Both the position numbers and the translations under genes were made by a program. This document shows, in pieces, positions 21,577 to 37,989 of a stretch of DNA of 64,000 nucleotides. Position 1 is the first letter of the stretch, and each line of letters begins with the position of its first letter. The notes under the pieces were generated by a model. The model was not told the origin of the DNA and did not search any database. It saw only the letters and a program-made list of their open reading frames with translations. Source of the DNA: Thermoanaerobaculia bacterium. Its GTDB lineage: Bacteria > Acidobacteriota > Thermoanaerobaculia > Gp7-AA8. The stretch is taken from NCBI GenBank assembly GCA_017883205.1, contig JADGNZ010000035.1, positions 444-64,443 of the forward strand, written 5' to 3'.

Positions 21577-21628
21577 GAGTTTGAAGGCGAGTGCGCGTAC
21601 GAGTTTGGCAGCGAATGGCCGGGCTTGT

Positions 21629-21655
21629 CTGGCAGTCTCGCCGAATGACTGCCAA
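21629..21655. promoter_or_regulatory. CIRCE-like operator (9-bp inverted repeat, 9-nt spacer) upstream of hrcA
   Basis: CTGGCAGTC-N9-GACTGCCAA compared with the CIRCE consensus TTAGCACTC-N9-GAGTGCTAA (same geometry, 6-7 of 9 arm positions shared). Located 53-79 nt upstream of the hrcA start. Confidence 0.5.
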
Positions 21656-21746
21656 CAAGCACGAGAATGTAGGAATTGCGCCGGATGGTGTCAAGATTTG
21701 CGGAGCGATGAGTGCAAGATTGAAATTGACTGGGGACCTGAATTTG

Positions 21747-22418
21747 ATGATGACACATCACATTTCGCGGCGGATCCGATCGCTCGGAGTGACAATCGTC
21801 TCTGTCATCGCGTTCGTCCTTCCGTCGGCCGCGCGTGCCGCGACGCTCGACCGGATCGCTGCCGTCATCGATCAACAGGTCCTGACCGTCAGCGAAGTCG
21901 ACCAGATGGCTGAGGTTCGTTTCATTCCGCGCATCGCCGGGCGAAGCAACGACGATTACCACCATGACATCCTCGAAGCACTGATTGCGCAAGCACTGCG
22001 GTATCGCGACGTGGAGCGCTTCGGGGCGCAGGACATCCCGAAAGACTCGATCGAAGCGCGGCTGGTGGAGATCCAGCATCGTTTTGTTCCGCCGGCTTCG
22101 CTCGACGCAGCGCTCCTCCGGGCGGAATTGACCCTCGATGAGTTGCGCGCACTCATCAAGCGTCAGTTGCAGGTGGAGGCTTACATTCAGGAGCGCTTCG
22201 CCCCGCTGATCTTCGTCGCCAATGATGACATCGCCGCGTACTACAACGGACCGTGGCGTCAGCAACGTGCCGCGAGAGGGCTTCCGGTGACGCCGCTCAA
22301 CGACGTCCGCGAAGAGATTCGCACGCTCATCCGATCACGCCAGCTCGAAGAGCAGATCGAGACGTGGACGAATCAGTTGCGGGCGCGGGCGAATGTGGAT
22401 GTGTATGCGTGGAAGTGA
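21747..22418 (+). CDS. SurA N-terminal domain-containing periplasmic chaperone-like protein
   Basis: Signal peptide MMTHHISRRIRSLGVTIVSVIAFVLPSAARA, then LDRIAAVIDQQVLTVSEV...ALIAQAL (SurA_N-like). The start is taken after the CIRCE region. Confidence 0.55.
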   Translation: MMTHHISRRIRSLGVTIVSVIAFVLPSAARAATLDRIAAVIDQQVLTVSEVDQMAEVRFIPRIAGRSNDDYHHDILEALIAQALRYRDVERFGAQDIPKDSIEARLVEIQHRFVPPASLDAALLRAELTLDELRALIKRQLQVEAYIQERFAPLIFVANDDIAAYYNGPWRQQRAARGLPVTPLNDVREEIRTLIRSRQLEEQIETWTNQLRARANVDVYAWK

Positions 22419-22424
22419 CGAATT

Positions 22425-22562
22425 GCGCTCGCTGGCGCGAGCGCGTTGTCGGTTGTCAGTTGTCGGTTGTCAGCGTGCGATATCCGGGGCCAACGCGCAA
22501 TCAGCGGCGCAGCGAGACGCTGGCAACTGGGACGGCAACCCATAACCGACAACAGACAACGC
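22425..22562. repeat. Hairpin element GTTGTCGGTTGTCAGTTGTCGGTTGTCAG...CCATAACCGACAACAGACAAC, with an adjacent GCGCTCGCTGGCGCGAGCGC palindrome
   Basis: Arms of tandem GTTGTC(G/A)G subrepeats and an imperfect reverse complement about 60 nt downstream. Confidence 0.75.
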
Positions 22563-22588
22563 GCGGCGGCGCTAGCCGCCGCGCATTT

Positions 22589-24193
22589 TCAAGGTACCGG
22601 GTTCGCGTTCTGCGTGTAGAAATCGACGGAGCCGATCTCCGTAACCAAGGCGCTGAAGTCGACGACGCGCACCGTCACGCGGTGTTTGGCGTTTGCGAGC
22701 TTCGTCGTATCGATGACGAAGTGCCATCCCGAGTTCTGACTGTTGAATAGATAGGGGTATTGCACCACAACGTCGGGACGCGGGAAACCGTACTGCGCCT
22801 TCCCCTTGAAGTCGCCGTCCACGAGGATATCGACCTCCTGGAGGGTGCTGTGTTCGGTCAGGGCCCAGCCCTGGAACGTAACCGTTCCCTTCATGAAGTC
22901 GTTGGTCTGCGGGACGTCGATGAAGCCGACGGCGGAGGCGACGCGGTCTTCCGCGCACTCGAAGAAGACGGGGATGCCATCGCGGTTCGGCAGCTCGGTG
23001 AACGTCTGCTGCTGATCGCCGACGCGCACTTTCAGCACGTGATTGCCAGGGCCTACGCCGGACGCGAGCAGCGCACCGACGTCCATCGTGAAGAGGAAGC
23101 CGGAGCGTGGCGCGTCAGGATATCCGGGGTAGTAGCGCTCCACGTCGAAGCGCGGCAGGCCGTAACAGTTCACGTAATTGCCGAAAATCGGATTGAATGC
23201 ACAGTCACCGGTCGAATACCAGATGCGGCCGTCGATCATCAGCTCGGCGTAGGCGACGCGGCCGGTGTCGGTGCGCGTGCCGAGGTCGAGAGCCCAGCCG
23301 CGGACCGGCGTGATATGCGATTGCGGATTGATGGCCGGTGAGGCCTGGGGAAATACGTTGCAACGCGTGCCGTACAGCACCGCGTCGCGGATCGGTTCAT
23401 CGATGTAGCCGAACGGTTTCAGATTGCCGCTCTCATTGAAGATCTGCACGGTGCGGCGGCCGATGAGCCGCGAGAGGCCGAGGCGGTCGGTCGCGCGCAC
23501 GTCGAGCGTGTGCACGCCATCCTGGATTCGCGTCGTATCGACGTTGGCGACGAAAGCGCTGTAGAGCGCATCGGGCCAGTCGGCAATCGTGTTGGCTACG
23601 TCCGGGCGCGGATCGCCGTACATGGCGTTCTGCACGACACCGTTGTCGATGAGCACCTCGACCTTGGCCACTCCGTCGGTGTCGAGCGCCCAGCCTGAGA
23701 CCGGGAACGAACCGGAGGCGTTGTACGTGCCGACAAGGTCGGGAATGTCGACGTTGCCGAAGGGCGATTGATTGATCGTATTGTCGACGGAGATCGTCCG
23801 GCGCCCGAGCTCAGTGACCGTGTTGTCGCTGGCGAACACGCGCACGGCGATCGTGTGTGCTCCATTCGTGAACCGGCTGGCCAGCATGCCGATCTGAAAG
23901 CCGGGCGCGATGTGCTGAATGCCGGGATAGTTCGGGTAGGACTGCTCCACATCGATGCGTGGCAGATTCGTGTTGGAGTTGACGACGAACTGATCGTCGA
24001 CGTACACGGCGATCCTCGAGATCGCCGCGGGGTCGAGGAACCACCCTTTGACGAGAATCACGCCGCTTTGCGTAACGGTCGAGTCAGGATATTCGAGCGC
24101 ACCGTGCGTCTCGACCGTTTGCGCGGTCAGCACAGGAACGACGAACGACACCACAATGGCGAGAACCAGGCCGCGGGTAACCCTTCTCCACAT
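22589..24193 (-). CDS. Secreted protein with four tandem approx 120-aa repeats (GW..D....V.VxVDG.....YG.PRPDV)
   Basis: Signal peptide MWRRVTRGLVLAIVVSFVVPVLTAQ, then four recognisable internal repeats. Confidence 0.65.
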   Translation of the reverse strand: MWRRVTRGLVLAIVVSFVVPVLTAQTVETHGALEYPDSTVTQSGVILVKGWFLDPAAISRIAVYVDDQFVVNSNTNLPRIDVEQSYPNYPGIQHIAPGFQIGMLASRFTNGAHTIAVRVFASDNTVTELGRRTISVDNTINQSPFGNVDIPDLVGTYNASGSFPVSGWALDTDGVAKVEVLIDNGVVQNAMYGDPRPDVANTIADWPDALYSAFVANVDTTRIQDGVHTLDVRATDRLGLSRLIGRRTVQIFNESGNLKPFGYIDEPIRDAVLYGTRCNVFPQASPAINPQSHITPVRGWALDLGTRTDTGRVAYAELMIDGRIWYSTGDCAFNPIFGNYVNCYGLPRFDVERYYPGYPDAPRSGFLFTMDVGALLASGVGPGNHVLKVRVGDQQQTFTELPNRDGIPVFFECAEDRVASAVGFIDVPQTNDFMKGTVTFQGWALTEHSTLQEVDILVDGDFKGKAQYGFPRPDVVVQYPYLFNSQNSGWHFVIDTTKLANAKHRVTVRVVDFSALVTEIGSVDFYTQNANPVP

Positions 24194-24263
24194 AACCCCA
24201 ACCTCCCCGAAAATAACCTTGCCCGATACTGCTCAGCCTAGGCGTGATCACGCCGATTCGTTG

Positions 24264-25277
24264 ATGAGCCGACGTTCAATCCATGGCCAGTTTGCCGGAG
24301 TTTATACTGCCGAGGTGAATTCTTCAAATATCGATGCGTCCGCTGTCACGATTGAGGATGTCCGGGAAGCCGCCATCCGCATCCAACCGTACGTCCACCG
24401 CACCCCTCTGCTGAGCAGCCGATCGCTCTCCGAGGCCATCGGCGTGGAGGTGCGTCTCAAGTGCGAAAACCTCCAGCGCGCAGGGTCGTTCAAGATCCGC
24501 GGGGCGATGAATGCGCTCCTGCAGGTGCCTGAGAACCAGCGCCGCAACGGCGTCGTGGCCTTCTCCTCCGGCAATCACGCACAAGGCGTCGCCCTCGCGG
24601 CCAGACTCCTCGGCATGAAGGCCACCATCGTGATGCCGGAGGGATCCAACCCGTCGAAGGTTGCTGCGACCGAGGCGTATGGCGCGACGGTCGTCACGTC
24701 GGGAGTCACGTCCGCGACGCGCGACACCGTCGCCCGCGACATCGCCAGCAAGAGCGGTGCGGCGGTCATCCCTCCTTTTGATGATTGGCGCATCATTGCC
24801 GGAGCCGGCACTGTCGGACTGGAGATCGTCGACGAATGGCCGGACGTGGAGACGATCGTCACACCGCTCGGCGGCGGCGGGCTGCTCTCGGGCGTCGCGA
24901 TCGCGGCGACGTCGAGCAAGCCGGACATCGCGGTCTACGGCGTCGAGCCGCGCGCCGGCAACGACGGCGAGCAGTCGTTCAAGTCCGGCCGCATCATCGC
25001 CATCGATCCGCCTAAGACGATCGCCGACGGCGCCCGAACGCTGGCCATTGGCGAGCGCAATTTTGCCGTGATCCGCGAACGGGTTCGCGACGTCGTCAGC
25101 GTCGAAGACGACGTTCTCCTCGATGCTGTGAAGTTCGCCATGTATCGAACCAAGCTCGTCATCGAGCCGACCGGTGCGCTGGGGATTGCCGCGCTGCTGT
25201 CAGGCGTGATCAAACCGAAAGGAAAGACGGCGATCGTCGTCAGCGGCGGTAATCTCGACTTCAGTCTGCTCTGCTGA
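24264..25277 (+). CDS. PLP-dependent threonine/serine dehydratase family protein
   Basis: SFKIRGA PLP-lysine motif and SSGNHAQGVA. The start is taken at MSRRSIHG; the upstream ORF overlaps a divergent gene. Confidence 0.8.
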   Translation: MSRRSIHGQFAGVYTAEVNSSNIDASAVTIEDVREAAIRIQPYVHRTPLLSSRSLSEAIGVEVRLKCENLQRAGSFKIRGAMNALLQVPENQRRNGVVAFSSGNHAQGVALAARLLGMKATIVMPEGSNPSKVAATEAYGATVVTSGVTSATRDTVARDIASKSGAAVIPPFDDWRIIAGAGTVGLEIVDEWPDVETIVTPLGGGGLLSGVAIAATSSKPDIAVYGVEPRAGNDGEQSFKSGRIIAIDPPKTIADGARTLAIGERNFAVIRERVRDVVSVEDDVLLDAVKFAMYRTKLVIEPTGALGIAALLSGVIKPKGKTAIVVSGGNLDFSLLC

Positions 25278-25315
25278 TCGATCTCTTTCACTCTTCACTC
25301 TTCACTCTTCGAATC

Positions 25316-26641
25316 ATGACCGCTTCCCTCTTCGGCGAAGACCCCTTCGAACCGCCCGCCCGCAGCGATGCGCCGCTGCCCGAGCGGCTGCGCCCACGCT
25401 CGCTCGAGGAGATCATCGGCCTCGACGAGATCCTCGGCGAGGGACGCTTCCTGCGCACGGCCATCGAGAGCGACCGGATTCCCTCGATGATCTTCTGGGG
25501 GCCGCCTGGCTCCGGGAAGACCACGCTGGCGCGGATCATCGCCAACAAGACCCGGGCGAAGTTCGTCACGTTCTCGGCCACCAGCACTGCGATCAAGGAA
25601 ATCCGCACGCTGATGGAGGAAGCGCGCCGCGAGCGGAAAGCGCGCGGGACGAAGACGATCGTCTTCATCGATGAGATCCACCGCTTCAACAAGGCGCAGC
25701 AGGACGCCTTCCTCCCTTTCGTCGAGGCCGGAGACATCATCCTCATCGGCGCCACGACCGAGAACCCGTCGTTCGAGGTGAACTCGGCGCTGCTGTCGCG
25801 GACGAAAGTCGTCGTCATCCCCGCGCTGGAGCGCGAACAGGTCATGACGATTCTGCGCCGCGCCGTCAGCGATCCCTCGGTGCGCAAATACGGCATCGAC
25901 GTCAGCGACGATGCTCTCGACTTCATGGCCGCGACCTCGGCTGGCGACGCGCGTCAGGCGCTCAACTCGCTGCAGCTCGTCGTCGAGACGGCAACGAAAG
26001 ACGACGGCGCGATCGACAAAACGAAAGTGACACAGATCCTTCAGCGCCGTTCGCTGATGTACGACAAGGGCGGCGAAGAGCACTACAACATCATCTCGGC
26101 GCTTCACAAATCGCTTCGCAACGGCGACGCCGACGCCTCGATGTACTGGCTGGTGCGCATGCTGGAGGGAGGCGAAGATCCGATGTACATCGCCCGCCGC
26201 CTCGTGCGCGCTGCTTCCGAAGACATCGGCAACGCCGACCCGCAAGCGCTGGTCTTCGCCATCGCCGTCCAGCAGACCGTCCACTTCCTCGGCATGCCGG
26301 AAGCCGGCGTCGCGCTGGGGCAACTGGTCACCTATCTTGCCGCCGCACCGAAATCGAACGCCGTCTACATCGGCTACGGCGAGGCAGTTCGCGAGGTGCG
26401 CCAGGGCGATAATCCAGGCGTCCCACTTCACATCCGCAACGCCCCCACGGGCCTCATGAAAGACCTCGGCTACGGCCGCGGCTATCAATACGCCCACGAT
26501 TTCGAAGACCAGACCGCGGCGATGGAGTGTCTTCCCGACGCATTGGCCGGCCGTCGCTTCTACGAGCCGAAGGAAGCGGGCGCCGAGGCGAAGATCAAGG
26601 CCCGGCTGGATGCGATGCGCGACGCGCGGAAGAAGAAGTGA
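25316..26641 (+). CDS. rarA: Replication-associated recombination protein A (RarA/MgsA AAA+ ATPase)
   Basis: FWGPPGSGKTTLARIIAN Walker A, IVFIDEIHRFNK Walker B, C-terminal MgsA helical domain. Confidence 0.9.
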   Translation: MTASLFGEDPFEPPARSDAPLPERLRPRSLEEIIGLDEILGEGRFLRTAIESDRIPSMIFWGPPGSGKTTLARIIANKTRAKFVTFSATSTAIKEIRTLMEEARRERKARGTKTIVFIDEIHRFNKAQQDAFLPFVEAGDIILIGATTENPSFEVNSALLSRTKVVVIPALEREQVMTILRRAVSDPSVRKYGIDVSDDALDFMAATSAGDARQALNSLQLVVETATKDDGAIDKTKVTQILQRRSLMYDKGGEEHYNIISALHKSLRNGDADASMYWLVRMLEGGEDPMYIARRLVRAASEDIGNADPQALVFAIAVQQTVHFLGMPEAGVALGQLVTYLAAAPKSNAVYIGYGEAVREVRQGDNPGVPLHIRNAPTGLMKDLGYGRGYQYAHDFEDQTAAMECLPDALAGRRFYEPKEAGAEAKIKARLDAMRDARKKK

Positions 26642-26780
26642 GCAGGCGCCGGTCATCGGTGCATTCGGAAAGCTGTAGCGGCAGCAGACCAGCGTCGGCT
26701 GTTCAGCGTGTTGGCGGCGCCCCTCGTTCACCGGCTGTATACTGCGATACCTCCATCCCATTCAGGAAACTGCGACTTCC

Positions 26781-28247
26781 ATGAGCTTCACGCGAGACGC
26801 TTTCATCAGCTACGCCCACATCGACAACGAACCTCTCCCTGATGAGAAGGAAGGGTGGGTGACTGTCTTCGACAAGGCGCTTCGACAGGTGCTCAGCCGT
26901 TACACGGGCAAGGATGCGAACATCTGGCGGGACGAGAAGCTGCAGGGGAATGACGTCTTCTCCGATGAGATCCTCAGCCAGTTCCCCGAGACGGCCGTGC
27001 TCGTGTCCGTCCTGTCGCCGCGCTATCTGAAATCGGAATGGTGCAGCAAGGAGATGACTCAGTTTTACGAGATCGCGGAGAAATCGGGCGGCATCATCAT
27101 CGGCAACAAGTGCCGCATCTTCAAAATCATCAAGACACCGTTCGGAAGAGACGAGTCCCTGCCGCCAGAAGTGGCGGGAGTGCTTGGACGCATTCTCGGC
27201 TACGAGTTCTATCACCTCGACGCCGACAACACGCCGCAAGAGCTCGACCCCGCTTATGGCGATTCGGCACGCCAGGATTTCCTGAAGTCCGTGACACGGG
27301 TGGCCTGGCACATCAAGGAGTTGCTCGATGTGATGTCGAGTGCGCCCGCGGCTGGAAAGGCCAGGCCATCGATCTACCTCGCAGAGTGCACGCGTGACCA
27401 GCGCGACGCGCGCTCAACTCTCGAGGGGGAGCTGAAGCGCCTCGGATACGACATCCTTCCCGATTCCCAGCTCCCCACCGACTCAGTGGAGTACGTCGCT
27501 GAGGTCGAAAAGCAGCTCCAGCAGTGCGATCTGTCGATCCATCTCGTCGGCAGCAGCTACGGTGCCGTGCCTGACGGAACCGATCAGTCGGTGGTCGCAC
27601 TGCAGAACGCATCGGCCGTCGGCGTCAGTAGGAAGAGCGGTCTTGCCCGCGTCATCTCCGTCCCGGCGGATTTGCAGACCACCGATCCGCGCCAACAGGC
27701 TTTCATCACCGCGCTGCATGAGGATGCCGGCTTACAGTTCGGCGCGGACCTCATCACCGGCGGGATCGAGGATCTGAAGAGCGCCGTGCTGGCGGCACTT
27801 GCCCGGGTCGAGCGAGCTACCAGCATTCCCGTTGCCGGCGCAGATAAGACGCTGGTCTACGTGATCTGCGACCCTCGTGACGTTCAAGCCACCATACCGT
27901 TGGCAAAGAGTCTCGTCGCCCGCGGCATGAGAGTCGAGCTGACGGTTTTCGACGGCGACGCGGCGGCTGTGCGCGAAGCGAATGAACAGCTCATGACGAC
28001 TGCCGGCGCGATCGTTCTCTTCTGGGGCGCCGGCGACGACACATGGCGCGCCTACCAGCAGAGTGATATCCGCAAGAACCAGGGTGCACGCCGCGACAAC
28101 CCGCCGAAGACGATCACGTACGTCGCCGGGCCCGCGACGAGCAAGAAGCAGTTTCTTCTGCAAACCGAAGCCGGCGTCATCGACGCCTCGAGCGCTCCCG
28201 AGGAGCAGGCGATCGCGGCTCTTGCCAAGGCGCTGGGGCTTACGTGA
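26781..28247 (+). CDS. TIR-domain protein with two additional C-terminal Rossmann/flavodoxin-like modules
   Basis: N-terminal DAFISYAHIDNE...IWRDE...AVLVSVLSPRYLKSEWCSKEM matches the TIR betaA/alphaC motifs. Further modules start at SIYLAECTRD and TLVYVICDPRD. The stop overlaps the downstream start (GTGATG). Confidence 0.8.
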   Translation: MSFTRDAFISYAHIDNEPLPDEKEGWVTVFDKALRQVLSRYTGKDANIWRDEKLQGNDVFSDEILSQFPETAVLVSVLSPRYLKSEWCSKEMTQFYEIAEKSGGIIIGNKCRIFKIIKTPFGRDESLPPEVAGVLGRILGYEFYHLDADNTPQELDPAYGDSARQDFLKSVTRVAWHIKELLDVMSSAPAAGKARPSIYLAECTRDQRDARSTLEGELKRLGYDILPDSQLPTDSVEYVAEVEKQLQQCDLSIHLVGSSYGAVPDGTDQSVVALQNASAVGVSRKSGLARVISVPADLQTTDPRQQAFITALHEDAGLQFGADLITGGIEDLKSAVLAALARVERATSIPVAGADKTLVYVICDPRDVQATIPLAKSLVARGMRVELTVFDGDAAAVREANEQLMTTAGAIVLFWGAGDDTWRAYQQSDIRKNQGARRDNPPKTITYVAGPATSKKQFLLQTEAGVIDASSAPEEQAIAALAKALGLT

Positions 28248-30679
28248 TGTCGACGAATCCGTTCCCCGGCTTACGTCCATTCCTTGAAGAAGAAGAGCAT
28301 CTCTTTTTCGGGCGTGAATCGCAGGTCGACGCCATGGTCGACACGCTTGCCGCGTCGCATTTCCTGGCTGTGGTCGGGACATCCGGATCGGGAAAATCGT
28401 CGCTCGTAAACTGTGGTCTGCGCCCGGCCCTTCATCGGGGAATGATGGCGCAAGCCGGCACGTCGTGGCGTATCGCCCAGTTCCGGCCGGGAAACAATCC
28501 GATCTGCGCGATGGCGGAAGCGCTGGCCAAAGAGGGGGCTCTCTACGGCGGTGCCGTGGAAGGTCCCTTCACTCAAAGCGAGATGATCGAGTCGAGTCTT
28601 CGCATGAGCAAACTTGGGCTGCTGGATGTCTTCGAGCAAGCCCGTCTGCCCCAGGGAACGAATCTGCTCGTGGTGGCCGACCAGTTCGAAGAGCTCTTCC
28701 GATTTCAAGAGAAGAGCGCAATCGGAACCAACGCGCGGAACGATCTCGCCGACCAGGCCACGGCGTTCGTCAACCTCCTCCTGGAAGTGCGCGGACACAA
28801 AGACCTGCCCATCTACGTCACGCTCACGATGCGCTCTGACTTTCTCGGCGAGTGCGCGCAGTTCTACGGACTACCGGAGGCGATCAACGGGGGCCAGTAC
28901 CTCGTGCCGCGGATGACTCGTGACGAGCGCAGACGCGCCATCGCCGGTCCTGTCGGAGTCGGCGGCGCGGAGATCGATCCGGTCCTGCTCACGCGCCTGG
29001 TCAACGACGTCGGCGGGAATCCCGATCAGCTTTCGATCCTGCAGCATGCGCTCAACCGCACCTGGCGGCAGTGGGAACGCGAGGGCAGCAGCGGTCCGCT
29101 GACCCTGCAGCACTACGAGAAGATCGGCACGATGGCCGGCGCGCTCGATCAGCACGCGGAAAAAGCCTATGCGGAGCTCACCACGCCAAGGCAGCGCGAA
29201 ATCTGCGAGAAGCTCTTCAAAGCGATTACCGACAAGGCCAGCGATGCCCGCGGTGTGCGGCGGCCTACGAGCGTGGACACACTCTGCAAATTGACGGGTG
29301 CGACGATCGAGGAGCTCACCAGTGTCGTCGACGTCTTCCGTAAGCCCAGCCGCTCCTTCCTCATGCCGCCATTCGGCGAGGCCCTGAAGGCCGATACGGT
29401 GATCGACATCTCCCACGAGAGCCTGATGCGTGTTTGGGACCGCCTGCGGATCTGGACCGAGGAAGAGGCGCGATCGGCGGGAACCTACCGCCGTTTGAGC
29501 GAGACGGCCTCACTGGAGCTTCACAACGACGCGAGCCTCTGGACCGGCCCGGATCTGGCGGGAGCGCTGGCCTGGCTGAACGACGAAAAACCGGAAGCCT
29601 GCTGGGCCGAGCGGTACGCGCCGGGCTTCAACGAGGCGATGGCGTTCCTTCGGAAAAGCACGGACGCGCAGGCCGCGGAACAAAAGCGCCATCGCGATGA
29701 AGCGTTGGAGAAGGCTCGGACCCAGGCCCGCTATGCCCGGGCGATTGCATTGCTTTCCGTGGCGCTGGTTCTCGCCCTGGCTCTCGGGGGCCTGTTAATT
29801 TACCGAAACGCCGCCACCAATTACCGGAACGCCGCCACCGCGCACGAGAGGGAAAAGGAGAAGCTCAACCGGTCCGCAAGGTCACTGCGGCAACAGGTTA
29901 TTGCCTCAGAGCAACAGGTCGTCAGCTCACAGCAACAGGTCGTCAGTTCACAGGCAGTCGCCGTTCAGTCGTTTGCGGTTGACAAGCAGCGGCCCGAGGA
30001 CGCTCGGAGAATTCACCAGAGCTTCGAGGCGCTGACCCATATTTCGGCGATCACAGCAACCGCTTCTCCGGAGCATTACACGAAGATCCAGTATTTCAAG
30101 AAAGCGACGGACTCACAGAAACTCGCCATGGCGCTGGATGACCTCGGTTTCGCGGTAAGCGAGGAAACCGCACGTACTCCCCGCGAGACGAATTGCATCT
30201 GGTACGGATCCGCAGTGCCGGATAACGATGTCAAGCTTGTCGCGTATGCCGTCATGCGAGCCGGCATCGATCTTAAGGGTATTCAGCCGCAGAACGTCGA
30301 GATCGGCTTCGATCCGGAGGTAATCCAAGTCGGCCATAACCCTTACTTGGATGAACAACCTCCATTCACACCGGACATCCTCAACACAACGCCGCCAAAC
30401 CAACTCCGTCGCATCGAAGTAGGGGCCAAGTCGAACGTTACCGGCATAATTACCAAACTTGATCCGAAGGCGCAGGAGGGTTGGATCCAGGGGCCGAAGG
30501 GCCCGGTGTATTTCCAGTTCTCGGACGATCCGCCGCCGAAGCCATTTAACGTCGGCGATGCCGTGACATTCACTGTCTACTACGGCAAGCGAATGTACGC
30601 GGAGAGGGTCACGGCACGAACGGAACAGCCTCGGCCCGGATCGAAAGCGGCGAGCGAGCTCAAAGCTGGCGTCCAGTAG
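28244..30679 (+). CDS. STAND-class P-loop NTPase with a predicted transmembrane helix, coiled-coil/tandem-repeat segment and C-terminal cold-shock-like OB fold
   Basis: NPFPGLRPFLEEEEHLFFGRESQVD...LAVVGTSGSGKSSLVNCGLRPAL (Walker A), LLVVADQFEELF (Walker B). Transmembrane-like LLSVALVLALALGGLLIY around aa 512-530. C-terminal TGIITKL...VYFQFSD...NVGDAVTFTV is CspA-like. Confidence 0.8.
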   Translation: MMSTNPFPGLRPFLEEEEHLFFGRESQVDAMVDTLAASHFLAVVGTSGSGKSSLVNCGLRPALHRGMMAQAGTSWRIAQFRPGNNPICAMAEALAKEGALYGGAVEGPFTQSEMIESSLRMSKLGLLDVFEQARLPQGTNLLVVADQFEELFRFQEKSAIGTNARNDLADQATAFVNLLLEVRGHKDLPIYVTLTMRSDFLGECAQFYGLPEAINGGQYLVPRMTRDERRRAIAGPVGVGGAEIDPVLLTRLVNDVGGNPDQLSILQHALNRTWRQWEREGSSGPLTLQHYEKIGTMAGALDQHAEKAYAELTTPRQREICEKLFKAITDKASDARGVRRPTSVDTLCKLTGATIEELTSVVDVFRKPSRSFLMPPFGEALKADTVIDISHESLMRVWDRLRIWTEEEARSAGTYRRLSETASLELHNDASLWTGPDLAGALAWLNDEKPEACWAERYAPGFNEAMAFLRKSTDAQAAEQKRHRDEALEKARTQARYARAIALLSVALVLALALGGLLIYRNAATNYRNAATAHEREKEKLNRSARSLRQQVIASEQQVVSSQQQVVSSQAVAVQSFAVDKQRPEDARRIHQSFEALTHISAITATASPEHYTKIQYFKKATDSQKLAMALDDLGFAVSEETARTPRETNCIWYGSAVPDNDVKLVAYAVMRAGIDLKGIQPQNVEIGFDPEVIQVGHNPYLDEQPPFTPDILNTTPPNQLRRIEVGAKSNVTGIITKLDPKAQEGWIQGPKGPVYFQFSDDPPPKPFNVGDAVTFTVYYGKRMYAERVTARTEQPRPGSKAASELKAGVQ

Positions 30680-30682
30680 TTA

Positions 30683-30808
30683 CCGGCCGGCGCGTTGGCG
30701 ATTCGCTCGATCGGCGCCGGCTTCCGGTCTTCGCTCACTTTCACGCAGACCACCTGCGCCTCGGTGACCAGGACTTTGTTCTGGTGAAGAGTGTCACGCG
30801 CAGACGCG
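30683..30808 (-). pseudogene. 3' fragment of a diverged paralog of the adjacent acyl-CoA thioesterase gene
   Basis: The minus strand encodes ...RDTLHQNKVLVTEAQVVCVKVSEDRKPAPIERIANAPAGN. The intact gene at 31278..31685 ends ...GTDPQKKVLVTEAQVVYVNVGEDRKPTPIVRIANALSR. About 85% nucleotide identity over about 100 bp. Upstream, the reading frame runs into the repeat array. Confidence 0.55.
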
Positions 30809-30835
30809 GAGGTACGTCTTGGCCGTTAACCTTAA

Positions 30836-31094
30836 CACCCTGAGTCTCTTGCGAAAGACTCCCGAGTCTTTTGCGAAAGACCCCCGAGTCTTTTGCGAAA
30901 GACCCCCGAGTCTTTAACGAAAGACCCCCGAGTCTTTTGCGAAAGACCCCCGAGTCTTTAACGAAAGACCCCCGAGTCTTTTGCGAAAGACCCCGAGTCT
31001 TTAACGAAAGACCCCCGAGTCTTTTGCGAAAGACCCGGGTGTCATTATCGAATGACCCGGGAGTCATTGTCGAATGACTCGGGAGTCATTCGCG
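30836..31094. repeat. Array of 12 contiguous palindromic 22-bp units: 9 of type TCTTTTGCGAAAGACCCCCGAG/TCTTTAACGAAAGACCCCCGAG, then 3 of type (A/G)TCGAATGACCCGGGAGTCATT
   Basis: Each unit is an inverted repeat (AAAGACTC/GAGTCTTT or AATGACTC/GAGTCATT) around a C/G core. The two main variants alternate. No unique spacers. Confidence 0.9.
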
Positions 31095-31164
31095 AAAGGG
31101 CACGGCAGAGGAGCTAACTGCATGGGGGTTCAGTAATTTAGGTGCTTCATCTGACAGATCGCAA

Positions 31165-31255
31165 GGGGGCAGGTCGAAACCGAAACCGACGACAGCTTGA
31201 GTAGAGCGGAATGCTCGCAGCGAAGTGTCGTCGGTTTCGGTTTCGACCTGACCCC
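31165..31255. repeat. Perfect 25-bp-stem hairpin CAGGTCGAAACCGAAACCGACGACA...TGTCGTCGGTTTCGGTTTCGACCTG
   Basis: Perfect inverted repeat with a GAAACC subrepeat, immediately downstream of the minus-strand thioesterase gene. Confidence 0.85.
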
Positions 31256-31277
31256 TTCGCTTCTTCCGCTTCGCCTC

Positions 31278-31685
31278 TCAACGGCTCAGCGCGTTGGCGA
31301 TGCGCACGATCGGAGTCGGCTTCCGATCTTCGCCCACGTTCACGTAGACCACCTGCGCCTCGGTGACGAGGACTTTCTTCTGTGGGTCGGTACCGCGGAT
31401 CGCCTCACAAACGACTTTGACCGTGATCGAGGTCCTGCCGATGCGGAGGGTCTCCGTCCAAAAGCTGATGAGGTCACCGACGAAGACGGGCTGGTGAAAG
31501 ACGATCTTGTCCATCGACACGGTCAGCATCAGCCGGGAGCCCTGGCGGCGCGCTTCGATCGCGCCGGCCTGGTCGATGTAGCTGAGGATCACGCCGCCGA
31601 AGATCGTGCCTTGCGCGTTCGTGTCGCGCGGCATCATCAAGACCCGGATGGCGGGCTCTGCCCAACGTTCGGCGATTTCAGTCAT
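31278..31685 (-). CDS. Acyl-CoA thioesterase (hotdog fold, YciA-like)
   Basis: VLMMPRDTNAQGTIFGGVILSYIDQAG, typical of YciA-type thioesterases; 135 aa. Confidence 0.85.
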   Translation of the reverse strand: MTEIAERWAEPAIRVLMMPRDTNAQGTIFGGVILSYIDQAGAIEARRQGSRLMLTVSMDKIVFHQPVFVGDLISFWTETLRIGRTSITVKVVCEAIRGTDPQKKVLVTEAQVVYVNVGEDRKPTPIVRIANALSR

Positions 31686-31753
31686 GTTCGATCACTCAGA
31701 GCGAAATCCCGATCGTCCCGCCTCGGTGACAACAACCCAGCCAGGCATCTCGC

Positions 31754-33703
31754 CTAGCCGGGCTGCTGCGAAGGCGTCTGCTGTTCGGTGACCTTCTTGT
31801 TGATGTCGATCGATGCTGCTTTCCGCAGGCTCTGGAGCATCGTAATACGGAGGTTCCGTGACTCCTGCTGGCGCAACGTCTCCATGAATTGCGTACGGTT
31901 TTGCGCGAGCGTGGCGGGATCAACTTTCTTCTGCTCGAGGACCTGGAAGATCACGGCACCGTCGCCGGTCATGATCGGACCCTTCACCTCACCCACCGGA
32001 GCGGTCATCGCCGCATTGACGAGCGCCGACGTGTCGCCGGTGAACCCGGTCACGGAGCCCTGGCGGTTGACCGACGTTTCCGCTGAGGCCAGGCCGAGTT
32101 TGGCGCCGGCCACATCCACGGACGGGGCAGGCAGCTCTTTCGCCAGCGCCTGCTGCGCGAGCAGCCGCGCCTTCTCCATCTTTGCGTCGTTCTCGACCTT
32201 GGCGCGCACCTCGTCGAGCGGCGAAACGCCGGCCGAGCGGATGTTGTACAGGAACGGAATGGCTGGACCGCGCTGTGTACCGATGATGTCGCCGACGTCG
32301 TTCTGCTTGGCCGCAAAGGCCCAGCTCGTGAACGCCGGATTGTTTCCCATTCCCGGAATTGCATCGGTCTTGCCGAACCACTGCGAGTCATTCGACGCCA
32401 CGTTCCCGCTGGCCAGCGCCGTGAACTCGGCGGCAGTCTTCGGCTTGTTCTCTTTGATGCGTGCGGCGATGCGGGTGATCTCGTCGCGGGCGTTATCCTT
32501 CGACTGCTGCTCGATGGTCAAGCCGCGCAGCCGGTCGCGCACCTCTTCGAACGTGTGGTATCCCGGCGGACGCCGCTCCAGCACTTTGATGATGTGGTAG
32601 CCAAACTCGGCGGAGCGGATCGGATCGCTGATCGTATTCAACGGCATCGTGAAGGCCGCCTTATCGAACGGTTCGACCGTCGTATCCTTGTCGACCCAAC
32701 CCATGTCGCCGCCCTTGCCTGCGGAGGATGGATCGCCCGAGTTTTCTTTCGCCAGCTTCCCGAAATCGGCACCGGCACGAAGCTGGCGGACGAGGTCATC
32801 AGCCTTCGCCTTGGCCGCCTGCTCGACCGGCGCGGGAGCGCCCTGATCAACCTTGATGAGGATATGAAGAATGTGCGCACCCTGGGGAGCTTTGAACTCC
32901 TCATGGCGCTGGTCGTAGATCTTGCGCACCTCGGCGTCGCTCGGGTTGATCTGCGCCCGGACCTTGGCGAAGTCGGCGATCAGGTATTTGGCCGCGCGCT
33001 GTTCACCGTGCGTGTATTGCGACTGGTGGGTGGTGTAGTACTGCTGCACCTCGGCCGGAGTCACGTTGACATTTGCCGCTTCCCGGGCTGCGGGATAGAG
33101 GACGTATTTGATCTTCGCGGTTTCGCTGGTGCGGCGATACTCGTCGTCGGCGGACTTCGGCGAGATGATGATCGAGTTCTGAATGGCGCTCTCGATCTTC
33201 GAGAGCGTGATCTCGCGGGCAAGCTCCTCTTCAAACTCCGCCGGCGACTGGTAGCCCATCATCGTGACGTAGCGCGTGTAGATCTCGGCGCCCACAAACT
33301 TGCCGTCGGGATTGAGCGTGGGCAGATCCAGAATCTTCTTCCGCACTTCCTCGGCTGATGCGCCGAGGTGAAGACGGCGGGCCTGCTGGAGGAGAAGATG
33401 CTGATCGATCAGCGAGTCGAGCACCTGCTTCTGCAGACCCAGCTGTTGAATCTGGTCCGGCGTAAGCGGCTGCCGGTACATCTGCTCGTAGTTCTTTTCG
33501 GTGTAGTAGAGAGCCCGATCGAACTCGCGGTACGAGATCGTCTCCCCGTTCACGCGGGCCGCGTACGCATGCTGGTCGATCCCGCCACCGTTGCCGGCAC
33601 CGCCAGCGCCCCAGTCGACGAAAATGAAGAGGATAAAGACCGCAACAATGGCGACCAGAATCCATTTGAGGTGCTGAAAGCTATCGCGCATCAACTTGAG
33701 CAT
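31754..33703 (-). CDS. ppiD: Periplasmic chaperone / peptidyl-prolyl isomerase PpiD-like
   Basis: N-terminal membrane anchor, SurA_N-like region, and parvulin-type PPIase region (...ILHILIKVD... GGDMGW...). The start is taken at MLKLMRD. Confidence 0.75.
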   Translation of the reverse strand: MLKLMRDSFQHLKWILVAIVAVFILFIFVDWGAGGAGNGGGIDQHAYAARVNGETISYREFDRALYYTEKNYEQMYRQPLTPDQIQQLGLQKQVLDSLIDQHLLLQQARRLHLGASAEEVRKKILDLPTLNPDGKFVGAEIYTRYVTMMGYQSPAEFEEELAREITLSKIESAIQNSIIISPKSADDEYRRTSETAKIKYVLYPAAREAANVNVTPAEVQQYYTTHQSQYTHGEQRAAKYLIADFAKVRAQINPSDAEVRKIYDQRHEEFKAPQGAHILHILIKVDQGAPAPVEQAAKAKADDLVRQLRAGADFGKLAKENSGDPSSAGKGGDMGWVDKDTTVEPFDKAAFTMPLNTISDPIRSAEFGYHIIKVLERRPPGYHTFEEVRDRLRGLTIEQQSKDNARDEITRIAARIKENKPKTAAEFTALASGNVASNDSQWFGKTDAIPGMGNNPAFTSWAFAAKQNDVGDIIGTQRGPAIPFLYNIRSAGVSPLDEVRAKVENDAKMEKARLLAQQALAKELPAPSVDVAGAKLGLASAETSVNRQGSVTGFTGDTSALVNAAMTAPVGEVKGPIMTGDGAVIFQVLEQKKVDPATLAQNRTQFMETLRQQESRNLRITMLQSLRKAASIDINKKVTEQQTPSQQPG

Positions 33704-33867
33704 CGGGACGAACCTCTTGTTTTGACTTGATTTGGATGGCAACCGCGGCGCGGGACACCTCCAGCCGGGCGATCGCGTGAATCCGTAAAAAACGCGGCAG
33801 TGTAGCTATTCCCGCCTCCCGGAGCAAACTGTGCCGCTGGGCGTGCTATAAACTTCGACTCGTCCCG

Positions 33868-35301
33868 ATGGCCAAAGAGAAGCAGAGCTCCGGACCCGTG
33901 ATCGACTGGTATCTCGTTTCCATCGAGCGCCTCAAGCAGATCGGTATCGTGATACTCGTCGTCCTTCTCGGAGGCGGTGCATGGTGGTACTACACCAACC
34001 AGAAACGTAATCCGCGCAGCTCGGCCGAAGCAGCGATCGCCGAGGCCAGACAGGCGCTCAACACGCTCGCTGCTTCCAAAGACTTTCCGATGCATCGCAG
34101 CGATTTCGATCGCGCGCAGCACAAACTCGACGAAGCCGGGACGAAGCTCGCCGCCGGCAATTATCCCGACGCCGAGAGCGCCGCGGTGGAGTCGCAGACC
34201 TTCAGCAGGGCCGCGCTCAGCGGAAAAGGAGGCGCGGACAACGACGCACAGTTCCTCACCGTCGAAGGCGACGTACAGTTTCAGAAGTCCTCGACGAGCG
34301 ACTGGAGTCCGGCGGAGATGCGCACGCCGCTCTTTAACGGCGACTGGGTCAAGACCGGAGGCAGCGCTTCCGCGGAGCTCATCTTTTCGAACGGTTCGCT
34401 CTACACGATCGGACCGAACGCACTCCTCGAGATCTACTCGCAATTCAATGCAGCGACCAGCAGGAAGAACAATTCCGTGCAGATGCAGGTCGGCTCGGTC
34501 GAGGTGGCAACAACCGACGACGCGTCGAGCGTCCGCACGCCCGGCAGCCAGGTCACCATCGACTCCGAGTCGACGACGCAAGTCGGTGTCGACACGCAGA
34601 AAACGACCGCGGTCCTGGCGGAAAAGGGATCGGCCTCGATAGCCCCGTCCGACGGCAGCGCGGCAGTGAAACTCGCCGTCGGCGAGAAGGTCACCACCAC
34701 CCCGCAGGGAGCGCTTTCTGCCGTACGCAAGCTTCCCATGCCGCCCGCGCTCCTCACGCCGTCCGACAATCAGGTCTTTCTGGTCACGGCCGATTCGCGC
34801 GTCGAGTTCTCGTGGGAAGCCGTACCGGGAGCCACCGGCTACCTGCTGCAAGTCTCCCGTTCGCGCCTTTTCACATCTCTGGAGATCAATTCGCAACGCC
34901 AGAAAACCACCGCCTCGGCGCTAGTGACCGCAGAGGGAGCGTTCTACTGGCGCGTAGCAGCAACGGAAGCAGGAGGCGACGTCGGTCCGTTCTCCGCATT
35001 TCGACGCTTCCGCGTCAACGGCCCGGGTCACGAAGGGACGACCGCTCCGGATGCTCCGGCACCACGGCTGCAGCTCAAGCGTCCGTATTCGATCGGCGGA
35101 GCGTTCTTCATGATCGAAGGGGACACAGACCCCGGCGCAACGGTCCTCATCAACGACGAGGACGCCGACGTCGAAGGGAACGGTCACTTCAAGAAGCTCG
35201 TCAGCTTCAACAAGGTCGGAACCAATCTGGTCGTCGTCAAAGCAACCAACGCAGCAGGCAAACAAACCCGGCAATCCGAGACGGTGCACGTGGAAGAATA
35301 G
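33868..35301 (+). CDS. Membrane-anchored FecR-domain protein
   Basis: N-terminal transmembrane helix IGIVILVVLLGGGAWWYY. Middle region GDWVKTGGSASAELIFSNGSLYTIGPNALLEI is FecR-like. Ser/Thr-rich C-terminus. Confidence 0.55.
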   Translation: MAKEKQSSGPVIDWYLVSIERLKQIGIVILVVLLGGGAWWYYTNQKRNPRSSAEAAIAEARQALNTLAASKDFPMHRSDFDRAQHKLDEAGTKLAAGNYPDAESAAVESQTFSRAALSGKGGADNDAQFLTVEGDVQFQKSSTSDWSPAEMRTPLFNGDWVKTGGSASAELIFSNGSLYTIGPNALLEIYSQFNAATSRKNNSVQMQVGSVEVATTDDASSVRTPGSQVTIDSESTTQVGVDTQKTTAVLAEKGSASIAPSDGSAAVKLAVGEKVTTTPQGALSAVRKLPMPPALLTPSDNQVFLVTADSRVEFSWEAVPGATGYLLQVSRSRLFTSLEINSQRQKTTASALVTAEGAFYWRVAATEAGGDVGPFSAFRRFRVNGPGHEGTTAPDAPAPRLQLKRPYSIGGAFFMIEGDTDPGATVLINDEDADVEGNGHFKKLVSFNKVGTNLVVVKATNAAGKQTRQSETVHVEE

Positions 35302-35308
35302 GGTTCGC

Positions 35309-35393
35309 GGGAGTCGCTGGTCGGGAGTCGGGGGTCGGAGAGCACTGGCAACGTTTGCGCTCCGACCCCCGACTCCCGATCTGCGACCCCCAC
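35309..35393. repeat. Hairpin element GGGAGTCGCTGGTCGGGAGTCGGGGGTCGGAG...CTCCGACCCCCGACTCCCGATCTGCGACCCCC
   Basis: Inverted repeat with GTCGGG subrepeats between the FecR-like gene and mreB. Confidence 0.8.
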
Positions 35394-35450
35394 TTCAGGG
35401 CAACGCTCTTGCAGCAAGCCTCCCAAACGTCAAAAAAGGACAAGATCTAG

Positions 35451-36479
<1,029 letters not shown>

Positions 36480-36591
36480 CGGGGTGTGGGGAGTGGGGAG
36501 TGGGGAGTGGTAGAGCGCGGCGAGTGGAAGCTCATCCCGAATCCGGCTCCGTTTCCTCTCCCACACCCCACCCCCCACTCCGCACGCCCAC
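36480..36591. repeat. Hairpin element with a canonical G-quadruplex arm GGGGTGTGGGGAGTGGGGAGTGGGGAGTGG...CTCCCACACCCCACCCCCCACTCC
   Basis: Four GGGG tracts with 3-nt loops on the plus strand, and an imperfect C-rich complement about 50 nt downstream. Located between mreB and mreC. Confidence 0.8.
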
Positions 36592-36625
36592 TGGCTCAGA
36601 ATCTGCTCCATAACGCGCACGAACC

Positions 36626-37486: not shown

Positions 37487-37989
37487 GGTGGCTTCGATTC
37501 GCGGTCGGACTCCTGATCGCTCTGACTCTTCACTCGCTGCTCGACAGCTTCTTCCCGAACGCGCTGGCGTTCTTCAACCCGTACGTCATCCTCGTCGTCT
37601 ACTACTCGATGGGCGGCAACGTCTTCGGCGCGATCATCGCAGGCGTCATCGCAGGCCTCGTGCAGGATGCCTACTCCGGCGCGATGTTCGGACTTCACGC
37701 TTTCGCACTCACCGTTTGCGCCTACGCCGTGGCCTCCATCAACTCCCGCCTCGTGCTGCGCGGCACGCTCGCGTTCGGCGCCTGCCTGGTCGGGGCCGTG
37801 ATCGTGAACGAGCTGGTGATCTACATCCTCGTGAACATCCTCCTCAAACAGAAGGTCGAGATGTTCGAGCAGGGAATGATCGTAAAGACGGTCTTCACCT
37901 GCCTCTTCGGGATGATCGTCTATCTATTGTTGACCCTGTTTCTGCGAGAAGAGCCGATCGACGCAACGAGGAGGCCGGCAGGGTGGTGA
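37483..37989 (+). CDS. mreD: Rod shape-determining protein MreD
   Basis: Polytopic membrane protein coupled (ATGA-type overlap) to mreC, in the canonical position. Confidence 0.75.
   Translation: MRWLRFAVGLLIALTLHSLLDSFFPNALAFFNPYVILVVYYSMGGNVFGAIIAGVIAGLVQDAYSGAMFGLHAFALTVCAYAVASINSRLVLRGTLAFGACLVGAVIVNELVIYILVNILLKQKVEMFEQGMIVKTVFTCLFGMIVYLLLTLFLREEPIDATRRPAGW

Follow-up and report, generated by a model that had tools for sequence, protein, structure and literature searches.

What does a STAND NTPase with a hydrophobic helix in mid-chain and a cold-shock-like fold at its C-terminus sense, on which side of the membrane, and with what output? Such a gene lies in the window, the 64,000-nucleotide stretch from a Thermoanaerobaculia bacterium (Acidobacteriota) that was analysed. 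We examined its start and domains, the helix and its conservation among homologues, the predicted folds behind the helix, and the neighbouring genes. The features are listed in Table 1.

Table 1 Features of the TIR-STAND gene pair (coordinates are positions in the window)
Feature	Residues	Position	Strand	Basis or remark
TIR partner gene, predicted cytoplasmic effector	488 aa	26781..28247	+	Pfam, gene overlap
N-terminal TIR domain	about 1-185	26781-27335	+	
DUF4062/TIR-like domain	about 195-345	27363-27815	+	
Third region of TIR partner, no domain assignment	about 355-488	27843-28244	+	
Membrane-spanning nSTAND1 receptor gene (predicted)		28247..30679 (stop codon included)	+	ORF list, translation
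nSTAND1 NTPase module, P-loop and helical/winged-helix region		28259..29509	+	PF20703 match
Walker A, GTSGSGKS	44-51	28376-28399	+	Intact, motif GxxGxGKS/T
Walker B, LLVVADQFEE	140-149	28664-28693	+	Intact, hhhhD then acidic residue
Predicted single transmembrane helix, AIALLSVALVLALALGGLLIY, N-in/C-out	499-519	29741..29803	+	Hydropathy scales, conservation
Juxtamembrane polar, mainly helical stalk	520-585	29804..30001	+	Repeats by TRF, helix from model
In-frame 21-bp tandem repeat, YRNAAT-N-YRNAAT		29800-29839	+	TRF period 21, 1.9 copies
In-frame 21-bp tandem repeat, QQVVSS units		29890-29953	+	TRF period 21, 3.0 copies
Unnamed alpha/beta domain, LytR_C-like, predicted extracytoplasmic	586-725	30002..30421	+	
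Divergent cold-shock-domain-like OB fold	726-790	30422..30616	+	
Low-complexity Pro/Ser/Thr/Ala-rich C-terminal tail	791-810	30617..30676	+	Low pLDDT, variability

The STAND gene and its TIR partner

The STAND ORF (28244..30679) has 811 codons when read from GTG at 28244 and encodes 810 aa from ATG at 28247; the ATG is the start on record in a public assembly, where a contig holds an identical 810-aa product with the TIR gene upstream. The product matched the Pfam nSTAND1 profile (PF20703) with 305 bits (curated cutoff 27.1 bits; E = 1.6e-90) over residues 6-422, and the alignment spans positions 1-368 of the 379 in the profile. This match and the two intact Walker motifs bear out the initial annotation, which had called the protein a STAND NTPase.

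The initial annotation had omitted the translationally coupled TIR gene directly upstream, the stop codon of which (TGA) overlaps the STAND ATG (TGATG). The TIR protein scored above cutoff against the Pfam profiles TIR_2 (42.8 bits, cutoff 28) and TIR (27.3 bits, cutoff 21.3) and slightly below cutoff against DUF4062 (23.6 bits, cutoff 24.7); the NCBIfam equivalog cutoff for FxsC of the Fxs system was not reached (FxsC_Nterm, 45.7 bits, cutoff 130). Seven aligned TIR partners share invariant F8, I9, S10, Y11, S85, C88, and E91, the last three falling in an S-x-W-C-x-x-E stretch (SEWCSKE here), and by this motif E91 would be the counterpart of the glutamate that serves catalysis in TIRs of plants and bacteria. 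The TIR gene likely gives the two-gene system its output. At its N-terminus the STAND protein lacks an adaptor domain through which it might contact the TIR protein, a point against the reading preferred below.

The hydrophobic helix and membrane topology

A 19-residue hydrophobic string, LLSVALVLALALGGLLIY, had been reported behind the NTPase and helical module. The string is present, with a length of 18 residues rather than 19, and the complete uncharged stretch, AIALLSVALVLALALGGLLIY, has 21 residues and charged flanks. Its mean Kyte-Doolittle hydropathy over 19 residues is 2.81 (next-best segment of the protein: 1.24), and summing the Hessa values gives -3.46 kcal/mol. With its low helical hydrophobic moment (0.31), the helix is not amphipathic. 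The predicted transmembrane helix, single and strongly hydrophobic, is thus supported, the call resting on hydropathy scales and conservation.

Of the 120 nearest nSTAND1 homologues, 116 have a hydrophobic helix within residues 450-600, and in these its position and hydrophobicity are kept while its sequence is not. The topology had been thought unusual; it is instead common in the nSTAND1 family. The initial annotation had also allowed either the sensor or the NTPase to lie across the membrane. An ATPase of about 500 aa without a signal peptide must remain cytoplasmic, so the sensor should lie outside. The charge bias agrees: K+R residues flanking the helix average 4.4 on the N-terminal side and 2.8 on the C-terminal side among the homologues (N > C in 83 cases, N < C in 11). 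We infer a bitopic protein with a cytoplasmic NTPase and an extracytoplasmic sensor.

The domains behind the helix are highly variable. The homologues carry WD40, TPR, FGE-sulfatase, PG_binding_1, SPOR, PD40, or polytopic C-termini, and paralogues that are 58-69% identical across the NTPase have, on the same NTPase-helix chassis, domains typical of the envelope (SPOR, PG_binding_1, PD40) as well as WD40, TPR, and FGE-sulfatase. SPOR and PG_binding_1 are peptidoglycan binders that act outside the membrane, and their place behind the helix in paralogues argues against a buried or interfacial anchor in a wholly cytoplasmic protein that, like Avs or bNACHT, would sense an intracellular ligand with its C-terminal domains. 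So do the uncharged length, hydropathy, low moment, and charged flanks of the helix, its retention despite sequence change, and the position of the middle domain, which in standalone proteins always follows transmembrane helices. That cold-shock domains are otherwise cytoplasmic, and that the original description of nSTAND1-FGS proteins took their sensors as intracellular (PMC8195603), speak for this cytoplasmic alternative, which we regard as very improbable.

The stalk and the predicted sensor domains

The stretch following the helix, noted earlier as containing a repeat, resolves into two in-frame 21-bp tandem repeats (TRF). The repeats are missing from orthologues, in which the stalk differs in length, and the modelled part of the stalk is predicted to be helical (AlphaFold2). 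The model has a mean pLDDT of 84 and a pTM of 0.75; that the alignments behind the structure models were shallow (17 and 71 sequences) counts against the reading we prefer. At the other end of the protein, the tail has a pLDDT of 58 and 48 in the final two 10-residue blocks of the model and differs in length and sequence between orthologues.

A domain of about 130 aa and of unknown type had been noted between stalk and C-terminus. It is real and folds independently in the model (pLDDT 92), with one helix followed by a beta-alpha-beta-beta-alpha-beta-beta core; what had been missed is its LytR_C-like character, suggested by weak fold matches. The best of these are the two solved mycobacterial LytR_C envelope domains, 6q10 and Rv0431/VirR. 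The LytR_C profile (PF13399) stayed below threshold, with 1 of 71 proteins reaching E = 0.0014 and 2 of 17 reaching E = 0.026 at best, and a profile search of PDB sequences with the middle domain retrieved neither Rv0431 nor Rv2700. The domain is a widespread, unnamed alpha/beta domain, found mostly in small, DivIC-like bitopic proteins. In standalone proteins it is always preceded by one or two N-terminal transmembrane helices, the flank charges of which put it outside in 61 cases and inside in 13; eight of these proteins match DivIC-type bitopic models. The closest structural neighbours, VirR (Rv0431) and Cei (Rv2700) of M. tuberculosis, are anchored in the membrane and carry an alpha/beta domain on the extracytoplasmic side, as predicted here, and VirR and Rv2700 have been described as LytR_C solo-domain proteins active in cell-wall remodelling (PMC11832169).

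The initial annotation had likened the C-terminal segment (TGIITKL..VYFQFSD..VGDAVTFTV) to cold-shock proteins, and the model agrees: the domain folds as a five-stranded OB barrel that superposes on E. coli CspA, its top Foldseek match (1mjc, TM 0.76). Neither of the refuting outcomes named in the initial annotation, a buried amphipathic helix or a C-terminus that does not form an OB barrel, was thus seen. The sequence profile of the domain retrieved CspA from the PDB at E = 8e-4, the list of 38 matches with E up to 10 consisting almost entirely of cold-shock or cold-shock-domain proteins, and hhalign aligned it to CspA with 94% probability. The homology to the CspA, Lin28, and Unr cold-shock domains (PF00313) is remote: the Pfam CSD threshold was missed, with 1 of 17 family members reaching E = 0.1. 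Unlike CspA, the domain would belong to a receptor and is predicted to be extracytoplasmic. We know of no precedent for a cold-shock domain outside the cytoplasm, a point that counts against the reading we prefer.

Could the domain bind single-stranded nucleic acid, and so sense extracellular DNA, or phage DNA crossing the periplasm? Its nearest relatives in structure and sequence, the cold-shock domains, bind RNA or ssDNA, and most members keep Y and F at the positions of CspA F31 and F34 and a residue of basic or polar character at that of H33. The W11 position, however, is Lys here and Lys or another polar residue in profile alignments, F18 is replaced by a family-conserved Glu, and F20 is variable, with Trp in the closest relatives only. 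Judged from these alignments, the canonical nucleic-acid-binding face (RNP1/RNP2 residues) is degraded, and the fold appears closer to the non-canonical cold-shock domains of Unr than to a nucleic-acid chaperone. The Foldseek matches also include periplasmic OB folds that bind other ligands, such as CusF. Taking these losses with the missed Pfam threshold, we consider a true nucleic-acid binder quite unlikely. The DNA-entry cue suggested by the initial annotation is unlikely as well, since the key nucleic-acid-binding aromatics are lost.

Conservation and probable role of the pair

A gene with a TIR_2 match (445-505 aa) lies directly upstream of the nSTAND1 gene in six of six related loci, whatever the sensor: the pair is retained in three orthologous loci (52-63% identity), one of them in another neighbourhood, and the TIR gene also precedes three paralogues in which the sensor is PG_binding, FGE, or WD40. 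The TIR partner proteins of the related loci are 42-56% identical. A TIR enzyme gene is thus paired with a STAND receptor, and the STAND protein is therefore probably a bacterial immune receptor, one that probably watches the cell envelope and not the cytoplasm.

The genomic setting counts against an immune two-gene system. The pair here and in its orthologues is surrounded by rarA/mgsA, a 4HBT thioesterase gene, ppiD, a FecR-like gene, mreB, and mreC, with no defence island around it in the window or the orthologous loci, and PADLOC-DB 2.0 (Avs, Thoeris, and others) gave no system-level match, which is the second such point. Component matches were limited to P-loop-level mad3/mad8 (17 bits) and ThsB (17 bits), with no ThsA near the latter. 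That orthologues only 59-63% identical share this housekeeping locus suggests long vertical inheritance. The pair might accordingly serve cell-envelope homeostasis or developmental signalling, with the outer LytR_C-like/OB module monitoring or binding the cell-wall synthesis machinery and the STAND and TIR proteins tuning physiology (e.g., by NAD-linked signalling) without killing the cell. [quoted passage not shown] Against it, the TIR-STAND combination is characteristic of conflict systems (PMC8195603, PMC7159879), and the extreme swapping of sensors on a conserved chassis is typical for arms-race receptors. Other pair-carrying loci, moreover, adjoin conflict-type genes (a kinase-NB-ARC/TPR protein, a MAP3K_TRAF_bd/TPR-S protein, and an Xre/MbcA-ParS antitoxin-type gene). 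On balance, a homeostatic role seems improbable to us.

We lean, with some reserve, toward a conserved two-gene conflict-type system, here carried by a Thermoanaerobaculia bacterium, with an NLR-like sensor that would span the membrane and control a TIR effector. The first gene would supply a cytoplasmic TIR domain with a putative catalytic Glu, followed by the TIR-like DUF4062 domain; the second would supply a cytoplasmic nSTAND1 module followed, after a single transmembrane helix and the helical stalk, by an extracytoplasmic sensor in which the LytR_C-like domain packs beside the degenerate cold-shock-type OB fold. The outer module would be bound or clustered by a periplasmic or cell-envelope cue, most likely the state of the cell wall or a ligand other than nucleic acid, and this would lead to NTP-dependent STAND oligomerisation on the inner membrane face. 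The oligomer would assemble and activate the TIR protein, which may then degrade NAD+ or make a nucleotide signal, with growth arrest or death as the outcome, as in other TIR/STAND immune systems. More tentatively, and with considerable doubt, nSTAND1-TM proteins and their conserved triple-domain TIR partners may form a widespread class of bacterial immune receptors that work from the outside in and unite the functions of a TLR and an NLR, their swappable periplasmic sensors detecting phage attack or envelope damage. If so, detection would take place at the cell surface, ahead of genome entry or irrespective of it; the sensor here would join the LytR_C-like domain to a cold-shock-derived OB fold repurposed away from nucleic-acid binding; and a cytoplasmic TIR NADase would be switched on through STAND oligomerisation in the membrane plane.

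Kaur, Iyer, Burroughs, and Aravind (2021; PMC8195603) defined the nSTAND1 clade from predicted counter-invader systems, in which it occurs with effectors such as TIR, and the present pair shares the NTPase module, the association with TIR, and the variable C-terminal sensors of that clade. Their description stresses effectors or adaptor domains fused at the N-terminus and "intracellular" FGS sensors, whereas here a gene of its own, lying upstream, encodes the effector, no adaptor is present, and a transmembrane helix separates NTPase and sensor. No description of the combination of LytR_C-like and CSD-like domains was found in the literature searched. Like the Avs families and bNACHT, the pair has a tripartite plan of effector, STAND NTPase, and C-terminal sensor, with activation expected by oligomerisation; those, however, are soluble and usually consist of a single chain, and they detect phage proteins within the cytoplasm, in contrast to the predicted bitopic protein here with its outside sensor and separately encoded TIR. 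The idea of a membrane-spanning STAND protein is already known, yet none has been characterised: a 2025 preprint by Evans et al. (bioRxiv 10.1101/2025.11.14.688446) only mentions "transmembrane STAND ATPases", as the sensors in Pepco-protease modules. These share with our protein a STAND ATPase, a membrane-spanning segment, and a defence context but are linked to protease/Pepco pore effectors, the partner here being a TIR protein. In topology only, the predicted receptor resembles eukaryotic-like Ser/Thr kinases of the PknB type and Toll-like receptors of animals, with a cytoplasmic signalling domain, one transmembrane segment, and extracytoplasmic ligand-binding domains; the analogy with Toll-like receptors, an outside sensor with an inside TIR, would run through the TIR partner. 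The sensor and transmembrane parts are not homologous to theirs, a STAND NTPase serves as the signalling engine, and the TIR domain resides on a separate polypeptide.

The STAND protein and its predicted membrane helix

The plus-strand frame 28244..30679 is translated without interruption and opens with GTG at 28244, followed directly by ATG at 28247. The 810-aa product of the ATG start has an identical record on a public contig (Logan SRR10489839), and the same exact-sequence look-up returned no record of the 811-aa GTG-start form. Pfam places nSTAND1 (PF20703) at residues 6-422 (305 bits, E = 1.6e-90), with the Walker A (GTSGSGKS, 44-51) and Walker B (LLVVADQFEE, 140-149) motifs both intact, so that the frame and the STAND NTPase proposed in the initial annotation were borne out. 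The gene and the window are alike in GC content (0.61 and 0.62). Minus-strand ORFs over this gene and over rarA/mgsA were dismissed as shadow ORFs, because the family matches of the plus-strand products are strong and their orthologues conserved.

The hydrophobic segment of the initial annotation is present but was given the wrong length: the string quoted has 18 residues, and the uncharged run, AIALLSVALVLALALGGLLIY, has 21 (residues 499-519). Over 19 residues it averages 2.81 on the Kyte-Doolittle scale (1.24 for the runner-up segment of the protein), and its Hessa apparent free energies sum to -3.46 kcal/mol. With a helical hydrophobic moment of 0.31, the helix is not amphipathic. Searching with the full-length protein gave 7,945 matches at E <= 1e-10. 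Of the best 120, which share 49-69% identity with the query over the NTPase, 116 carry a hydrophobic 19-mer (KD >= 1.6) within residues 450-600. The amphipathic or buried helix against which the membrane-spanning reading had been set was rejected on the low moment and this family-wide conservation, and we give a non-spanning helix less weight than the envelope-signalling role considered below. The predicted topology is typical of the clade, not unusual as had been thought.

The C-termini of the same 120 homologues carry WD40, TPR, FGE-sulfatase, PG_binding_1, SPOR, PD40, pentapeptide repeats or polytopic regions, and the domain pair of the query (a LytR_C-like domain and an OB fold) also recurs among them. 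Lys and Arg are more frequent on the N-terminal flank of the helix (mean 4.4 vs. 2.8 on the C-terminal flank; N > C in 83 proteins, N < C in 11). An ATPase of 500 residues without a signal peptide must remain cytoplasmic, and the target of SPOR and PG_binding_1 domains is peptidoglycan; a predicted N-in/C-out topology fits both points. Beyond the helix, the stalk contains two in-frame 21-bp tandem repeats. These are absent from orthologues, whose stalks differ in length, so slippage seems free to alter the length of the stalk.

A TIR partner and its neighborhood

The initial annotation read the STAND gene singly and missed the gene directly upstream, whose product matches TIR_2 (42.8 bits) and TIR (27.3 bits), with the DUF4062 TIR-like domain slightly below threshold. 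Six related loci were examined: three same-sensor orthologues (63, 59, and 52% identity) and three paralogues with TPR+PG_binding_1, FGE-sulfatase, and WD40 sensors. A TIR_2-matching gene (445-505 aa) lies directly upstream of the STAND gene in all six, overlapping it by 4 nt in five. Identity among the seven partner proteins is 42-56%, and the FISY motif, S85, C88, and E91 are invariant. E91 ends the stretch S-x-W-C-x-x-E, which we take to be the site of the catalytic glutamate in plant and bacterial TIR enzymes, and is thus a putative catalytic Glu. Since the partner is kept across sensors, the pair is the unit and the outer sensor of the STAND protein the variable part.

The partner seemingly comprises three flavodoxin/TIR-like modules (TIR, DUF4062, and a C-terminal region of ~130 aa), and its range of identity holds across loci with unrelated STAND sensors (L003, L005, L007, L009, L010, L011); in L010 a frameshift seems to affect the C-terminal part. 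PADLOC and NCBIfam scans of the two genes led to no meaningful system assignment, and FxsC_Nterm was well under its cutoff.

Features of the pair and its flanks
Feature	Coordinates	Strand	Remarks
ORF, 488 aa	25295-26761	-	no family match; overlaps rarA/mgsA; probably a shadow ORF in GC-rich sequence
rarA/mgsA	25316-26641	+	RarA/MgsA-type AAA+ ATPase (MgsA_C, E = 1e-63); upstream of the pair
Partner gene, 488 aa	26781-28247	+	stop TGA, its A being the first base of the STAND ATG
STAND gene, 810 aa	28247-30679	+	
ORF	28271-28798	-	shadow ORF
ORF	28871-29416	-	shadow ORF
Stalk repeat	29800-29839		1.9 copies, YRNAAT-N-YRNAAT
Stalk repeat	29890-29953		3.0 copies, QQVVSS units
ORF, 186 aa	31197-31757	+	no match; overlaps the thioesterase gene; probably spurious
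4HBT thioesterase	31278-31685	-	E = 8e-16; downstream of the STAND gene; also in orthologous loci

The host belongs to an uncultured Thermoanaerobaculia lineage, and in reference genomes the C-terminal region has its relatives exclusively in Thermoanaerobaculia MAGs. On its other side in the window, the pair is followed by the 4HBT thioesterase gene, ppiD, a FecR-like gene, mreB, and mreC. Two orthologous loci share the neighbors seen in the window, so the pair looks vertically inherited and outside any defence island in this lineage. This housekeeping synteny favors the main rival explanation, that the pair has a non-immune role in envelope signalling; on the main reading, the pair would belong with a known kind, the STAND + TIR conflict systems. 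The third orthologue adjoins MacAB-type genes and a kinase-NB-ARC/TPR protein, and the paralogues adjoin a MAP3K_TRAF_bd/TPR-S protein or an Xre/MbcA-ParS-type gene. The gene order over 21400-37500 (Big_7, PALP enzyme, rarA, TIR + nSTAND1, 4HBT thioesterase, ppiD-like PPIase, FecR-like, mreB, mreC) is conserved in Thermoanaerobaculia contigs (L003-L006) whose STAND proteins share just 59-63% identity, with a peptidase S9 gene added in one lineage and a gene of ~250 aa in another.

Predicted outer domains and proposed mechanism

Residues 571-810, modelled from an alignment of 17 orthologues (A1), gave a helix, an alpha/beta domain, and a five-stranded beta domain (mean pLDDT 84, pTM 0.75), the last two in one confident predicted relative arrangement. 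The top Foldseek match of the beta domain (726-790) is E. coli CspA (1mjc; TM 0.76 normalised to target, 28% identity), and CusF, a periplasmic OB protein, is also among the top matches. In a structure-independent search of PDB sequences with an OB-fold profile (A3, 19 sequences), CspA was recovered at E = 8e-4, and of the 38 matches listed (E up to 10) only a few are anything other than cold-shock or cold-shock-domain proteins; hhalign aligned the domain with CspA at 94% probability. The predicted CSD-like OB fold of residues 726-790 is thus confirmed as a probable remote homologue, and the CspA-like barrel agrees with the OB fold that had been read from the sequence.

In the profile alignments, the position of CspA W11 is occupied by Lys or other polar residues, that of F18 by a family-conserved Glu, and that of F20 is variable; aromatic residues are mostly kept only at the F31 and F34 equivalents. 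The domain also falls below the threshold of the Pfam CSD model. From the changed W11, F18, and F20 equivalents and the Pfam result, the canonical nucleic-acid-binding face is regarded as lost. The degraded RNP face weakens the DNA-entry cue of the initial annotation, disfavors DNA or RNA as ligand, and leaves nucleic-acid sensing with less weight than envelope signalling. The apparent recruitment of a cold-shock-type OB fold to a predicted extracytoplasmic sensor is new domain biology.

The middle domain (586-725) was searched for with the last 239 residues by exhaustive HMMER against 1.84 billion cluster representatives (50%-identity library), giving 374 proteins at E <= 1e-3, most covering this domain only. 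Among 150 matches listed, 148 carry it, 19 of them nSTAND1 proteins; most others, of ~190-290 aa, have one or two hydrophobic helices at the N-terminus and then a coiled-coil-like stretch. In these small proteins, flank charge of the last helix places the domain outside (61 vs. 13), and eight match DivIC-type bitopic models weakly. Modelled alone (A2, 71 sequences; pLDDT 92, pTM 0.88), it has a helix and a beta-alpha-beta-beta-alpha-beta-beta core. No Pfam family covers it, and a few members give sub-threshold LytR_C matches (best E = 0.0014). The domain of unknown type in the initial annotation is present, and we call it LytR_C-like, a resemblance then missed, with membership of that family not established. 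VirR and Rv2700, LytR_C solo-domain proteins, have a role in cell-wall remodelling (PMC11832169). As a widespread, unnamed, membrane-anchored alpha/beta domain, it merits family definition.

ZntA/CopA heavy-metal-associated domains (middle-domain profile vs. PDB, E about 0.05) were rejected as non-significant, sharing only a beta-alpha-beta motif. A word-indexed search with the profile found only eight proteins, without informative names. Members of this large family of small proteins come from MAGs that bear the labels candidate division KSB1 and Deferribacteres, and from Williamwhitmania taraxaci (Bacteroidota), where the standalone protein (L015, 6001-6732) has unannotated neighbors, nothing useful in Pfam, and no functional clue. 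Y-F-P-K-x-V-D, P-T-N-A-I-W-F-G, and I-Q-V-G recur as conserved motifs, and the domain occurs twice in one nSTAND1 protein (P0129).

We think that the STAND protein is a transmembrane NLR-like receptor controlling a TIR effector. Its outer module (stalk, LytR_C-like domain, and OB fold) would bind an envelope-side cue or be clustered by it. Once clustered, the receptors would tend to oligomerise through their cytoplasmic nSTAND1 modules in an NTP-dependent manner, and the oligomer would assemble the partner TIR into its active form. The probable cue is cell-wall state or an envelope-associated ligand, as suggested by the peptidoglycan-binding domains of sister receptors and by the LytR_C-like neighbors. 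Beyond architecture and gene linkage, we infer this mechanism.

Relation to described systems

To our knowledge, every bacterial STAND/NLR-like immune protein characterised by experiment is soluble and detects phage proteins within the cell. If the architecture works as predicted, NLR-type switches also serve as transmembrane receptors watching the periplasm or cell wall. A conserved NTPase-TM chassis (58-69% identity) bearing very different grafted outer domains, with a conserved TIR partner, points to a large, uncharacterised two-gene family. In the original description of nSTAND1, the associated FGS sensors are treated as intracellular and a TM segment is not discussed (PMC8195603). Our literature search for a described transmembrane nSTAND1 + TIR system turned up nothing beyond a brief mention of 'transmembrane STAND ATPases', listed without characterisation among the sensors linked to Pepco-protease modules (bioRxiv 10.1101/2025.11.14.688446), whereas the protein here has a TIR partner.

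Two fragments from a word-indexed search (291 aa) had wrongly suggested that the C-terminal region is rare, which the full-length and exhaustive HMMER searches corrected. A subgroup of close nSTAND1 homologues of ~1,100-1,280 aa (P0042-P0047, P0054, P0056, P0060-P0065, P0074, P0095, P0109) has no recognisable Pfam domain beyond the NTPase and 5-8 further hydrophobic segments, and appears to be a STAND NTPase fused to a polytopic membrane domain.
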